This document shows, one piece after another, positions 23,701-27,465 of a stretch of DNA of 36,696 nucleotides. The stretch covers positions 1 through 36,696 of the forward strand of contig DAORCH010000029.1 in NCBI GenBank assembly GCA_035345335.1, in the 5' to 3' direction. Both the position numbers and the translations under genes were made by a program. The notes beneath the pieces are model-generated. The model was not told where the DNA came from. It was given only the letters and a program-made list of their open reading frames with translations, and made no database searches. This DNA is from Leptospiraceae bacterium. GTDB lineage: Bacteria > Spirochaetota > Leptospiria > Leptospirales > Leptospiraceae. Positions within the stretch are counted from its first letter, which is position 1; every line of letters starts with the position of its first letter.

Positions 23701-24570
23701 ATGAATAAAACAATTGCTTTTATTGGTGTTGGGATTATGGGTCGTGGTCTTGTTAAAAACCTCAAAAAAACAAATACAAAATTAAAGATCTATGCGCGCA
23801 ATCAATCAAAGATAGAATTTCTAAAAGATACAAATACAGAAATTTTCCCAACGATAGCCGACACGGTAAAAGATGCTGATTTCATCATACTCTGTCTCAC
23901 AGAGGATGAAGTTGTCGAGAAAGCTTTTTTTGAAGCTGTGGCTGAACCACAAAAAGCAATTGTTTTAGATTTTGGAACAAGTTCTCCAAAGCTGACAGAA
24001 AAAATGCAATATGAGTCAAAAAAAAGAGGCTTTCGTTTTATAGATTCTCCTATGACAGGAAGTAAGCTAGCAGCCGATAAAGGCGAAATTTTATTTATGG
24101 TAGGTGCTAGCCAAGAAGACTTTCAAGCTTGCAATTTTATCTGGGAAGCTTGTGGTAAAAAAGTAATTCATTGTGGAGATGTTGGAAATGGGCAGCTAAT
24201 GAAGATTACCCTCAATATGATACAAGCGGGACTAGCACAAGTTTATATGGAAGGTCTTATACTTGGTAAAAAGCTAAGTTTAGATTTGGGAGTATTGCAT
24301 GAGATTATTACAAATTCTGCTGCACGCTCTGGAATATCTGATTTCAAAGTAAATTGCATACTAAACGATGACTACTCAACTCATTTTTCATTAAAAAATA
24401 TGAATAAAGATTTAAATCATGCTCTTCGTATTGCAACGGAAAATAACGTTAGTCTACCAATTATTCATAGTGTAAAATCTATATATGATGCGGGAATGTC
24501 TCATAATCAGGGAGAGGAAGATTTTATAAGTCTTTTCAAAATAAATAAACAAATCAATAATATTAATTAA
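23701..24570 (+). CDS. NAD(P)-dependent beta-hydroxyacid dehydrogenase (3-hydroxyisobutyrate dehydrogenase family)
   Basis: It has the N-terminal GVGIMGRG Rossmann motif and a 6-PGDH-type NAD-binding domain. Confidence 0.75.
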   Translation: MNKTIAFIGVGIMGRGLVKNLKKTNTKLKIYARNQSKIEFLKDTNTEIFPTIADTVKDADFIILCLTEDEVVEKAFFEAVAEPQKAIVLDFGTSSPKLTEKMQYESKKRGFRFIDSPMTGSKLAADKGEILFMVGASQEDFQACNFIWEACGKKVIHCGDVGNGQLMKITLNMIQAGLAQVYMEGLILGKKLSLDLGVLHEIITNSAARSGISDFKVNCILNDDYSTHFSLKNMNKDLNHALRIATENNVSLPIIHSVKSIYDAGMSHNQGEEDFISLFKINKQINNIN

Positions 24571-26992
24571 TCTTATAACCCCATTTTAAAATTAAGTCTT
24601 CAATTTTTTCTTTTGTAAATGGCTTGCTTGCATAATCATTCATACCAACCTTAAAACAAGTGTCTCTAGTGGAATCGGTTACACCTGCAGTCACTGCAAT
24701 AATTGGAGTCTCCTTGTAGTTTTCCAATTCTCTAATCTTTCTTGTCGCATCATATCCATCCATTTCTGGCATCTGAATATCCAAGAATATTAAATTAAAT
24801 TGATTATTTTGACAAAGGGAGACAGCCTTTTTTCCATTGCTGACTTCTGAGAGCTTTGCTTTCGGTAAAATTCTAGAAATAATGGTTCTAATCAACATTA
24901 GGTTTATTTCATCATCATCTGCTACTAGAATTTGAATTGGTTTTTCTTTTAAAATGGCAAGGCTCGGTAAAATCTTACTTGCCTCCTCCGGTTCTCCAAT
25001 CTTAACTCTTAACTTAAAAAAGAACTCACTGCCTTTCCCTAACTCACTATTAATCTCTAAATGACTATCCATTAATTGGAGTATCTTATTTGTTATCGGT
25101 AAACCAAGACCGATGCCACCATACTGCCGAACATTGGATTGATCCACTTGAGAAAAGAAATTTATAATCTGAGTTTGGTTCTCTTTAGAAATGCCAATAC
25201 CTGTATCCCTAATGGAAAAAAGAAGGGTCGCTTCTTTATCCATCGGTTCCATTGCGTCATGCGTTACTTCAATTACTACATCTCCACTGTCTGTGAACTT
25301 TATAGCATTACTTAAGAGATGTATCAAAATTTGTCTCAAGCGAATTGAATCTGTATAAATATAATGAGGGGTTTTTTCTGAAATTTTTAGTTTTAATTTT
25401 ATATTTTTCTTTAACTTTAATTTATGAATCTCAGTTACTTGATCTAGAACACTAATCAAATCAACCTTTTCCATTTGAAGTTGTATTTTTCCTAAATAGA
25501 GCTGACCAAAATCTAAGAGATCATTTAACTCGACTAACAATAAATTTCCCGATTGAAGAATCGTATTAACATATTTGATTTGAATTTCATTTAAATGAGT
25601 GGATTTTAATAAATCAGAAAAACCTAAAATCGCATTGAGTGGCGTCCGAATCTCATGACTCATATTGGAAATAAATTGAGATTTTGCTGCGTTAGCCGAC
25701 TCTGCTTCTTCTTTTGCTCTTCTTAATTCTATTTCTGATTTCCTTTCCTCAGTAATGTCTTTGCCATAGCAAGCAAGTCCAATTATTTTCTTTTCTTTAT
25801 AAATTGGTTTTATAATTAAACTAATCCATCCAACCGGACCTTCCGAATCTAATGTCCGGAATTCTGTTTTAACAATTTCACCGCTAAAACCTTGATCATA
25901 AAGCTTACGCCAATACTCTAAAATTTCTTTTGTGTAATAACTTTGATCCAAAAGAGAATTTCCTATTTCTAAGATTCTTCCAGTAGATTTTTGTATACTT
26001 GAAATAAATGCGTTATTTGCTGTAACTAAACAATAATTTCTATCAACCCCCCAAATTAAATCATCTATATTATTGAACAGAGCATCTCTTTCAATATTCA
26101 GATTGATAATTGTATTTTCTTTTTCCCTTCTCTCGTAAAGAGTTGCCGTTAATACCATTGTATTAACCATAACAATGCTAATAAAGCTGTATAGAAGAAG
26201 TAAACTTGAATTGATTTCGCCTGTATAAAACGGTCCCTTACCGTTTACTGTTCCAAGAACCGCGATCATCATTGCAATAAATGCAAATAAATAAGAGACT
26301 TTTGCTTCTAAGCGAATCGCTGACCAAATTAAAAATGGAAATACAAACCAAGTCAGATATTTTCCAGAAATATAAAAATCATATTCGAAATGAATCATGA
26401 ATTGTATAAAACATAAAAAGGAAAACAAAAGTATTGCTTCTAAAAATCGCTTAACACTATGAGGTTTGGTAGATATAAAAGACCATGATAAGAGAAGAGA
26501 TCCTAGTGTCAGAATTCCAAATGCATCCCCCGCCCACCAAGAAGCAATTGCATAACCAATATTACTCCATTTCAACATCCCATTCAAGCATAATCCTATT
26601 GAACCAATAATGGAGCTGAGAATTGGAGAAACTACTACTGAAAATAATAAAAAGAAGAAAATATCTTTTAGCCTAAGTAGAGATGGTCTTATTTTAAATT
26701 TTGTTTTCGCTAAATAGATTGAAATAATTGGCTCAAGAGTATTTGCGATAGTCGCAAATAAAACAAAGCTAATTGGAGCATTTGTTGTTAGGTTGGCGAC
26801 AAAGGCTCCAACTGCTATTCCTAAGGTAAATCTATATCCAAAAAGAAATAAAATGGCTACCGAGAAACCGGAAGGTAACCAAAATAGAGTTACATTAGAT
26901 TGAATAAATGCAAATGTTAATCCAATTTTTGCTAATACAAAAAAAAGGATGGCAACAAGAGCATTCTTAAAAAAATAATTCAACTTTTTCAT
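24563..26992 (-). CDS. Hybrid sensor histidine kinase: MASE1-like membrane domain, PAS, HisKA, HATPase_c, C-terminal receiver
   Basis: It has ~8 TM helices, the H-box SHEIRTPLNAILGFSDLL, the N/G boxes, and a C-terminal receiver (ILVADDDEINLM...DIQMPEMDGYD). I prefer the ATG at 26992 over the track's TTG at 27019. Confidence 0.8.
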   Translation of the reverse strand: MKKLNYFFKNALVAILFFVLAKIGLTFAFIQSNVTLFWLPSGFSVAILFLFGYRFTLGIAVGAFVANLTTNAPISFVLFATIANTLEPIISIYLAKTKFKIRPSLLRLKDIFFFLLFSVVVSPILSSIIGSIGLCLNGMLKWSNIGYAIASWWAGDAFGILTLGSLLLSWSFISTKPHSVKRFLEAILLFSFLCFIQFMIHFEYDFYISGKYLTWFVFPFLIWSAIRLEAKVSYLFAFIAMMIAVLGTVNGKGPFYTGEINSSLLLLYSFISIVMVNTMVLTATLYERREKENTIINLNIERDALFNNIDDLIWGVDRNYCLVTANNAFISSIQKSTGRILEIGNSLLDQSYYTKEILEYWRKLYDQGFSGEIVKTEFRTLDSEGPVGWISLIIKPIYKEKKIIGLACYGKDITEERKSEIELRRAKEEAESANAAKSQFISNMSHEIRTPLNAILGFSDLLKSTHLNEIQIKYVNTILQSGNLLLVELNDLLDFGQLYLGKIQLQMEKVDLISVLDQVTEIHKLKLKKNIKLKLKISEKTPHYIYTDSIRLRQILIHLLSNAIKFTDSGDVVIEVTHDAMEPMDKEATLLFSIRDTGIGISKENQTQIINFFSQVDQSNVRQYGGIGLGLPITNKILQLMDSHLEINSELGKGSEFFFKLRVKIGEPEEASKILPSLAILKEKPIQILVADDDEINLMLIRTIISRILPKAKLSEVSNGKKAVSLCQNNQFNLIFLDIQMPEMDGYDATRKIRELENYKETPIIAVTAGVTDSTRDTCFKVGMNDYASKPFTKEKIEDLILKWGYKIN

Positions 26993-27043
26993 TTGATAAT
27001 ATTTATCAAAAAAATACAACCTAGAAATTGAATCGATAGTTTT

Positions 27044-27427
27044 TTAATTGCACCAACTTTTATCACCACTTGCAATTGCTTTACACTGTGCAGAGCTACA
27101 CCAAGATTTATCTTTAGAAGCAACTCCTTTGCAATCAGAATCATTGCACCAACTTTTATCACTACTTGCCCATGCTTTGCAAAGAGGAGAACTACACCAT
27201 GACTTATCTTTAGATGCAACTCCTTTACAATCATTTGTCTGACACCAACTCTTGTCTCCACTAGCAATGCCTTTGCAATCGTTAGTTGTGCACCAACTTT
27301 TGTCTTTGCTTGCTATGCCTTTACAATCTCCCGAAGACAGGGAAGAGATGAAATTACTTCCCCAATCAGCAGCGGCGAGGTTAATAGAGATTAACCCCAT
27401 AAACAAAATTAACTTAATTTTATTCAT
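27044..27427 (-). CDS. Secreted cysteine-rich tandem-repeat protein (six repeats of ~19 aa, CK[GA][IVW]AS[KGS]DKSWC core)
   Basis: A signal peptide (MNKIKLILFMGLISINLAAA) is followed by six repeats, each bracketed by two Cys (12 Cys in total). Of the three overlapping ORFs here, only this frame has a start context and a signal peptide. Confidence 0.6.
   Translation of the reverse strand: MNKIKLILFMGLISINLAAADWGSNFISSLSSGDCKGIASKDKSWCTTNDCKGIASGDKSWCQTNDCKGVASKDKSWCSSPLCKAWASSDKSWCNDSDCKGVASKDKSWCSSAQCKAIASGDKSWCN
27047..27328 (-). repeat. In-frame 57-bp tandem coding repeat, about six copies
   Basis: The repeat is visible directly in the DNA (..ccaacttttatcac.., ..tcctttgcaatc.. recurring every 57 bp). 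Copies have diverged mostly at silent positions. Confidence 0.7.
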
Positions 27428-27465
27428 CTATATTCTCCTTTTATTTTAAAATAAGCTCAATGTTT

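Follow-up and report, generated by a model that had tools for sequence, protein, structure and literature searches.

We analyzed a 36,696-nt stretch of DNA from an uncultured Leptospiraceae bacterium (GenBank assembly GCA_035345335.1, contig DAORCH010000029.1, positions 1 to 36,696), referred to here as the window. A small gene on its minus strand, at 27044..27427, encodes a cysteine-repeat protein that belongs to an uncatalogued family of exported repeat-domain proteins with about 200 cluster representatives. We think it probable that the protein forms an exported, disulfide-stapled alpha-solenoid domain that serves as a stable binding or scaffold module. An earlier note, made from the sequence alone, had picked out the gene and suggested that its product is a multicopy precursor of looped peptides paired with a receptor kinase encoded downstream; as its fallback, the note named a structural, repeat-based secreted protein, and it is the fallback that fits the evidence.

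The open reading frame (ORF) encodes a 127-aa product, MNKIKLILFMGLISINLAAADWGSNFISSLSSGDCKGIASKDKSWCTTNDCKGIASGDKSWCQTNDCKGVASKDKSWCSSPLCKAWASSDKSWCNDSDCKGVASKDKSWCSSAQCKAIASGDKSWCN, and is laid out as follows.

27044..27427, minus strand: complete gene for the exported Cys-repeat protein, 127 codons plus stop, from the ORF listing
27435..27440, minus strand: Shine-Dalgarno sequence AAGGAG, 7 nt 5' of the repeat-gene ATG, read from the sequence
27368..27427, minus strand: putative Sec-type signal peptide, residues 1 to 20 (MNKIK, hydrophobic core, AAA, then D21), recognized by eye
27326..27367, minus strand: N-terminal cap, residues 21 to 34 (D-W-GSN-F-I-SS-LS-SGD)
27290..27325, minus strand: unit 1, residues 35 to 46, CKGIASKDKSWC
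27242..27277, minus strand: unit 2, residues 51 to 62, CKGIASGDKSWC
27194..27229, minus strand: unit 3, residues 67 to 78, CKGVASKDKSWC
27146..27181, minus strand: unit 4, residues 83 to 94, CKAWASSDKSWC, preceded by L, with an L-C-x-x-W signature kept across phyla
27098..27133, minus strand: unit 5, residues 99 to 110, CKGVASKDKSWC, as in unit 3
27047..27085, minus strand: unit 6, residues 115 to 126, CKAIASGDKSWC, preceded by Q and followed by the single terminal residue N127

Judged by its N terminus, the protein looks like a substrate of the Sec pathway, in line with the description of it as secreted in the earlier note. The short cap that follows is shared by the close subfamily as the motif W-x3-[WYF]-I-x2-LS-x2-D, placed directly before unit 1, and in alignment A1 two of its residues, W22 and S31, reach at least 90% conservation. 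Comparison of the mature domain with the closest genomic ortholog, from a Leptospiraceae metagenome-assembled genome (MAG; locus L011), gave proportions of nonsynonymous and synonymous differences (pN and pS) of 0.043 and 0.72, respectively, showing that the ORF is a real gene under strong purifying selection on its protein.

The array itself consists of six C-x10-C units with the consensus CK[GA][IVW]AS[KGS]DKSWC. The earlier count of six cysteine-bracketed repeats was right, but their period is exactly 16 aa (a 12-residue unit plus a 4-residue linker) and not 19; the spacings between successive units in the window protein are 16, 16, 16, 16, and 16, and one residue follows the last Cys. Nor are the units uniformly flanked by D or N, as had been thought: D precedes units 1, 2, 3, and 5, but L precedes unit 4 and Q precedes unit 6, and these unit-specific residues are kept across phyla. 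The linkers (TTND, QTND, SSPL, NDSD, and SSAQ) are fixed in length and have no common cleavage motif, so that no uniform processing site was found among them. Cysteines, all invariant, account for 11% of the mature chain (107 residues), and outside the signal peptide the protein contains neither His nor Met.

At the DNA level, the array was picked up by Tandem Repeats Finder, at periods of 48 and 96 nt, with a top score of 276. Across all pairs of the six 12-codon cores there are 69 synonymous versus 30 nonsynonymous codon differences, which agrees with the earlier observation that the copies differ mainly at silent sites and that the peptide sequence is under selection. For Ser10, four units use the codon AGT and the other two use TCA or TCT. 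Because these codons belong to two families, we conclude that the unit copies are kept alike by selection on the protein. Recent homogenization of the DNA was considered as the source of the identical DKSW motifs and was rejected, given the AGT versus TCA/TCT split at Ser10 and the antiquity of the unit-specific scaffold residues.

The units are conserved in two distinct layers. We compared 23 six-unit proteins that could be matched unit for unit. At positions -1, 3, and 4, identity between the same units of different proteins is 0.93, 0.80, and 0.84, versus 0.37, 0.48, and 0.28 between the units of one protein. The pattern reverses at positions 9, 10, and 11, where identity is 0.78, 0.83, and 0.92 between the units of one protein and 0.42, 0.24, and 0.45 between the same units of different proteins. 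Positions -1, 3, and 4 are thus unit specific, and positions 9 to 11 are protein specific. In Leptospiraceae and Myxococcota alike, units 1 to 6 begin D-C-K-G-I, D-C-K-G-I, D-C-K-G-V, L-C-K-A-W, D-C-K-G-V, and Q-C-K-A-I. The loop motif, which is DKSW in all six window units, is elsewhere DRSW, DRTW, DRYY, DKYY, ESVY, or NSSW throughout a protein. Based on this two-layer conservation, the six units are ancient and individually differentiated, yet carry a four-residue motif that changes in all of them together. As read from the alignments, such a pattern is the one that a solenoid would show if its scaffold were fixed and its stacked ladder covaried.

Structure prediction points in the same direction. 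For the full-length protein with a 25-sequence alignment, AlphaFold2 (AF2) gave a predicted local distance difference test (pLDDT) score of 96 to 98 over residues 21 to 127, with a predicted template modeling score (pTM) of 0.77 and agreement among three of five models; pLDDT was below 50 in the signal-peptide region. For the mature domain with a 99-sequence alignment, all five models agreed (pLDDT, 97.2 to 97.9; pTM, 0.89). Both runs give the same unit six times over: a helix of 8 residues, a brief interruption, a 3-10 turn of 3 residues, and a linker of 3 residues. There are no strands. The models thus suggest that the protein is most likely one compact helical domain. A Foldseek search of the PDB with the model returned no resembling chain (best E value, 3.4), and a sequence search of the PDB with the family profile yielded only chance matches (E value, ∼0.15).

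The protein has no place in current catalogs, and the earlier statement that it matches no known family holds. Pfam and NCBIfam scans gave nothing above threshold. At an E value of ≤10, the only Pfam matches were sub-threshold ones to DUF3551 (PF12071; 17.0 bits versus a cutoff of 26.5) and IBR, and the same scan gave no match to the Sel1/TPR-like profile (PF08238). A full-text literature search found nothing on the repeat motif, and an exact-match look-up of the window protein in public assemblies gave no record. A word-indexed protein search returned 27 close homologs, all unnamed or hypothetical and 46 to 77% identical to the window protein, and a profile search of 1.84 billion representatives returned 201 matches at an E value of ≤1e-3, 124 of them at ≤1e-10. 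Five profile matches (P0049, P0113, P0144, P0145, and P0159) were dropped as low-complexity false positives.

An array of three to seven C-x10-C units, mostly five or six and nearly always spaced by 16 residues, is present in 143 of the retrieved proteins. No array begins or ends in a partial unit, and the number of cysteines is always even, in consecutive pairs; in 77 of 144 arrays the protein stops exactly one residue past the last Cys. A hydrophobic stretch is found at the N terminus of most members (124 of 143), and 37 of those 124 have a lipobox-like motif. The window protein has each feature by which the family is defined: an export signal, three to seven C-[KR]-[GA]-[IV]-x7-C units at 16-residue spacing, and, as is usual though not universal in the family, an end one residue later. 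When one genome per species was scanned, 32 family loci were found, all in MAGs. Nearly all are labeled Leptospiraceae, Spirochaetota, or Myxococcota (Kofleriaceae, Polyangia, or Myxococcales), and a few bear other labels; it seems that the family is confined to Leptospiraceae and Myxococcota.

In some larger secreted proteins, of 300 to 964 aa, the array forms a module at one end. Among 44 longer members, 10 have Somatomedin_B, an extracellular disulfide-rich domain, upstream of the array; one 964-aa member has the array fused to WG_beta_rep repeats, and several are coiled-coil lipoproteins with a C-terminal array. Two members have the array at the N terminus, followed by 200 to 400 more residues. 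In a subfamily with Somatomedin_B (P0040, P0041, P0047, P0054, and P0119), an insertion with extra cysteines follows the third unit (C-x8-C-x13-C-x8-C in P0047), which suggests an elaborated middle turn.

Four-unit variants correspond to clean loss of units 4 and 5, one 96-nt double unit (P0020 versus P0006; also P0021, P0022, and P0024). Units 3 and 5 are the most similar pair at the DNA level in the window (4 differences in 36 nt), and the loss is consistent with recombination between them. We also observed that one Leptospiraceae MAG (JANYCR01) holds two paralogs. One, at L011, adjoins an MVP-like (major vault protein-like) gene and is 84% identical to the window protein; the other, at L030, is a lipoprotein form that is 58% identical and adjoins a HAD hydrolase gene, with a TP0873_N-domain gene further downstream. 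The orthologs at L044 (5286-5741) and L045 (6432-6887) are identical except that Tyr replaces the second Cys of unit 3 in L044 (KDKSWY versus KDKSWC), a difference due either to an error in sequencing or to natural variation that leaves one cysteine unpaired.

Together, the array, its conservation, and the predicted fold lead to the following picture. The protein would be exported by Sec and, once its signal peptide is removed, would form a single compact all-alpha solenoid domain made of the short conserved cap and six stacked 16-residue units. Each unit would comprise an 8-residue helix (D-C-K-G-I-A-S-x), a 3-residue 3-10 turn in the S-W-C region, and a 3-residue linker and would probably be stapled by a disulfide between C1 and C12. 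Pairing of consecutive cysteines is the default of DsbA-type oxidation. Because arrays hold whole C-x10-C units and the Cys count is even, pairing within units is also the simplest scheme. Ile/Val4, Ala5, and Trp11 (W/Y11), along with the cystine, may form a small core, and residues 8 to 10 (D-K-S; K/R9 and S/T10), possibly with Trp11 at the edge, may form a six-rung ladder exposed on the surface. Such a domain would be a rigid binding or scaffold module that resists proteases, located either at the cell surface or in the periplasm; its paralogs and homologs are lipid anchored or are larger secreted proteins in which the array is the terminal module. The uniformity of the ladder suggests a periodic ligand. 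Our most likely guess is a glycan polymer, because Asp, Lys/Arg, Ser/Thr, and Trp/Tyr are typical of sugar binding.

Several points weigh against this picture. AF2 may be overconfident on regular repeats, and the disulfide pattern and surface ladder are inferred. The uniformity of positions 8 to 11 within a protein would be expected of a multicopy peptide precursor as well, and no conserved neighbor or fused enzymatic domain hints at a ligand. We are more hesitant about a broader proposal, which we would at present sooner doubt than assert: that the fold is absent from solved structures, being a very short, 16-residue alpha-helical solenoid with a disulfide per turn, and that its lineage-specific ladder (DKSW, DRTW, DRYY, ESVY, or NSSW) makes up a surface tunable toward a periodic ligand, for example, a crystalline surface or a glycan strand.

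The window is chromosomal, with genes for FtsH, PntAB, YidC, Jag, and MnmE, and has a GC content of 35%; an Rfam scan of it gave no match. In minus-strand order, a che cluster (methyl-accepting chemotaxis protein, CheW, CheA, and CheB) is followed by a histidine kinase gene, a receiver gene, the MVP-like gene, the repeat gene, and a MASE1 hybrid kinase gene. The two immediate neighbors of the repeat gene are as follows.

27466-29964, minus strand: MVP-like gene, 832 aa (MVP_shoulder, E value of 2.7e-24; Vault_3; Band_7)
24563-27019, minus strand: MASE1-HisKA-HATPase-REC hybrid kinase gene, by domain matches

The MVP-like gene ends 38 nt before the repeat gene on the same strand. From the repeat gene to the kinase gene there are 24 nt to the first TTG of the kinase and 51 nt to its first ATG, the latter matching the distance of about 50 nt given earlier. 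No terminator-like site was found between the three genes. The MVP-like protein is a homolog of the eukaryotic major vault protein, lies at the end of a che-type cluster on what is apparently a Leptospiraceae chromosome, and is 88 to 91% identical in six related metagenome or MAG loci. One 2019 preprint (10.1101/872010) gives bacterial MVP homologs for Myxococcales, Cytophagales, and Oscillatoriales only.

We compared the window with the related loci that carry the MVP-like gene; identities are to the window.

L007: MVP 91% identical; repeat gene present, with the contig ending within it; kinase off the contig
L044 and L045: MVP 91% identical; repeat gene present; MASE1 kinase, 38% identical (L045)
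L011: MVP 90% identical; repeat gene present; kinase with four PAS domains and no MASE1
L042 and L043: MVP 88% identical; repeat gene absent; MASE1 kinase 29 nt after MVP, 41% identical (L043)
L046: MVP 68% identical; repeat gene absent; no kinase, with a convergent gene next
Downstream kinases compared with that of the window (24563-27019): L043 6522-8975; L045 7075-9531; L011 6391-9141

The kinase diverges much faster than its neighbors (38 to 41% identity where MVP has 88 to 91%), and synteny seems to break at the kinase slot. In L042 and L043, only ∼29 nt separate the MVP stop from the kinase start (L043 6494-6521), which indicates clean gain or loss of the repeat gene at this junction. 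The remaining ∼30 repeat-family loci have no MVP gene and no adjacent kinase, with the exception that L020 and L025 have an unrelated dCache hybrid kinase 1 to 2 kb downstream. Other neighbors across the family loci include restriction enzymes, a deaminase, NHL-repeat proteins, a nitroreductase, and a HAD hydrolase. All-against-all ORF clustering of 41 loci plus the window recovered no neighbor family in more than five loci, and those loci are closely related; the same clustering found no protease, exporter, or modifying enzyme conserved near the repeat gene. Nor was any metal transporter or regulator conserved near family genes. Based on this locus comparison, the repeat gene is free-standing and, in one small clade, happens to be flanked by a vault-like gene on one side and a rapidly changing kinase slot on the other. 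Separately, in two Myxococcota lineages we observed large secreted proteins with the Cu-binding_MopE motif (PF11617) adjacent or close to family members (L004 4931-7933; L026 and L040 6744-10345; L008 8731-11622), a proximity that may be due to chance.

These comparisons bear directly on the pairing proposed earlier, in which the protein would be cleaved into six disulfide-looped peptides of 12 to 16 residues that signal via the downstream MASE1 hybrid kinase. Export of the protein, the identity of loop positions 8 to 11 in all six units and their joint shift between lineages, and a same-strand kinase gene that follows with no terminator-like site between would all suit such a precursor. The kinase, however, is not a conserved partner: it follows MVP directly in L042 and L043, where the repeat gene is absent, the repeat gene of L011 is paired with a PAS kinase instead, and ∼30 other loci have no adjacent kinase, so that no conserved cognate receptor was found. 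The membrane helices of MASE1 fill kinase residues 20 to 298, leaving no sizeable periplasmic domain. The precursor itself also lacks the expected hallmarks, as no conserved protease, exporter, or modifying enzyme is encoded nearby and the linkers, though fixed in length, share no cleavage motif. Moreover, the unit-specific residues kept between Leptospiraceae and Myxococcota imply that the units are not interchangeable, the whole domain is confidently predicted to fold compactly, and the array forms the terminal module of proteins of 300 to 964 aa. We therefore regard a cleaved signaling precursor as very unlikely. The suggested association with the vault-like gene fares no better, and a role of the repeat protein as an accessory of the upstream MVP-like protein is highly improbable. 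The repeat gene does lie 38 nt downstream, on the same strand and not separated by any terminator-like site, and this order recurs in L007, L011, L044, and L045. All such loci are close relatives (MVP 90 to 91% identical), however, so the shared order is synteny by descent, local to one small clade. L042 and L043 (MVP 88%) and L046 (68%) have MVP and no repeat gene, and no other fetched repeat-family locus has an MVP gene. The MVP-like protein begins MAAEERQRERDL, with no hydrophobic N-terminal stretch; since export applies to the repeat protein alone, the two proteins would not share a compartment.

A thiolate metal-binding protein, in which 12 reduced cysteines would line the solenoid and bind Cu(I), Zn, or Cd in the manner of a periplasmic metallothionein or a Csp-like store or buffer, is also unlikely, although it accounts for the abundance and invariance of the cysteines. 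The predicted fold is helical, as in the Csp copper-storage bundles, and in two Myxococcota lineages family members have proteins with the Cu-binding_MopE motif nearby; PF11617 matches, however, are common in Myxococcota secreted proteins and are no proof of copper binding. The signals are of the Sec or lipoprotein type and not Tat, and export of an unfolded chain into an oxidizing compartment would favor disulfides. Likewise, the even number of cysteines in consecutive pairs in every array and the co-occurrence of the array with disulfide-rich Somatomedin_B argue for cystines, the mature protein offers no His or Met, and no metal transporter or regulator is conserved nearby. As for the opposite strand (27048..27242 and 27252..27449), the chance that the real product is encoded there is close to nil, and the earlier dismissal of these ORFs stands. 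One of the antisense frames is almost free of stops in the window (27048-27449, plus strand) and entirely so in L011 (5985-6374, minus strand), but it mirrors the sense constraint, with a pN/pS of ∼0.19 versus ∼0.06 for the sense frame; the other two antisense frames have several stops and a pN well above pS. It is the sense ORF that has the Shine-Dalgarno sequence, the signal peptide, and the cap motif, and conservation of its protein extends from the window, at 35% GC, to homologs in Myxococcota. The antisense frame is thus open because of sense codon usage. Such a long ORF mirroring the repeat gene is easily misannotated, and naive ORF calling chose it in several loci.

The analysis removes a tempting peptide-receptor signaling pair in an uncultured Leptospiraceae bacterium as an unsupported lead. 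It also defines a family of exported repeat-domain proteins that no catalog lists and whose fold, predicted with very high confidence, has no counterpart in the PDB. Should this fold and the per-unit disulfides be confirmed, the units would be among the shortest alpha-solenoid repeats known. The family would then offer a clean natural case of a fixed scaffold with a ladder that covaries across all units, relevant to the evolution of repeat proteins and as a compact, disulfide-stabilized scaffold for design.

Among known systems, the Helicobacter cysteine-rich proteins HcpB and HcpC, which are Sel1-like, are likewise secreted binding modules in which tandem alpha-helical repeats, with a disulfide per repeat, stack into a solenoid. 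Helicobacter cysteine-rich proteins consist of 36-aa disulfide-bridged alpha/alpha Sel1-like repeats (PMC2581425). The Hcp/Sel1 repeat, however, spans 36 aa (36 to 44) with two antiparallel helices, whereas the window repeat spans 16 aa with one predicted 8-residue helix and a 3-10 turn; the window protein has no Sel1/TPR Pfam match, and no PDB chain is structurally alike. The middle repeat region of CagY from Helicobacter pylori also has surface-exposed helical repeat modules with regular, conserved cysteines, for which stabilizing disulfides have been proposed (PMC2581425). CagY motifs differ in that they are 31 to 39 aa long with a high content of Lys and Glu and belong to a type IV secretion protein of very large size; they have no sequence similarity to the window protein.

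Multicopy precursors such as yeast alpha-factor and multicore ribosomally synthesized and posttranslationally modified peptides resemble the window protein in that a leader or signal is followed by near-identical tandem units whose likeness is maintained within each protein. Unlike them, the window protein has no uniform cleavage sites, maturation or export genes, or conserved receptor; its units are differentiated, and it is predicted to fold as a whole. The copper storage proteins Csp1 and Csp3 are small, helical, and Cys rich, and some are exported. They are four-helix bundles with long helices, Csp1 being exported via Tat, and in Pfam, NCBIfam, and PDB searches the window protein had no sequence or family match to them. 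Beetle antifreeze proteins (Tenebrio and Dendroides) have 12- to 13-aa repeats that are braced by disulfides and present a uniform ladder of side chains to ice. These are beta-solenoids with a T-C-T ladder, whereas the window protein is predicted to be all-alpha, with a D-K-S-W ladder and no strands in the model. Belonging to none of these groups, the window protein comes closest in function to the Helicobacter cysteine-rich proteins and the CagY modules and in logic to the beetle antifreeze proteins.

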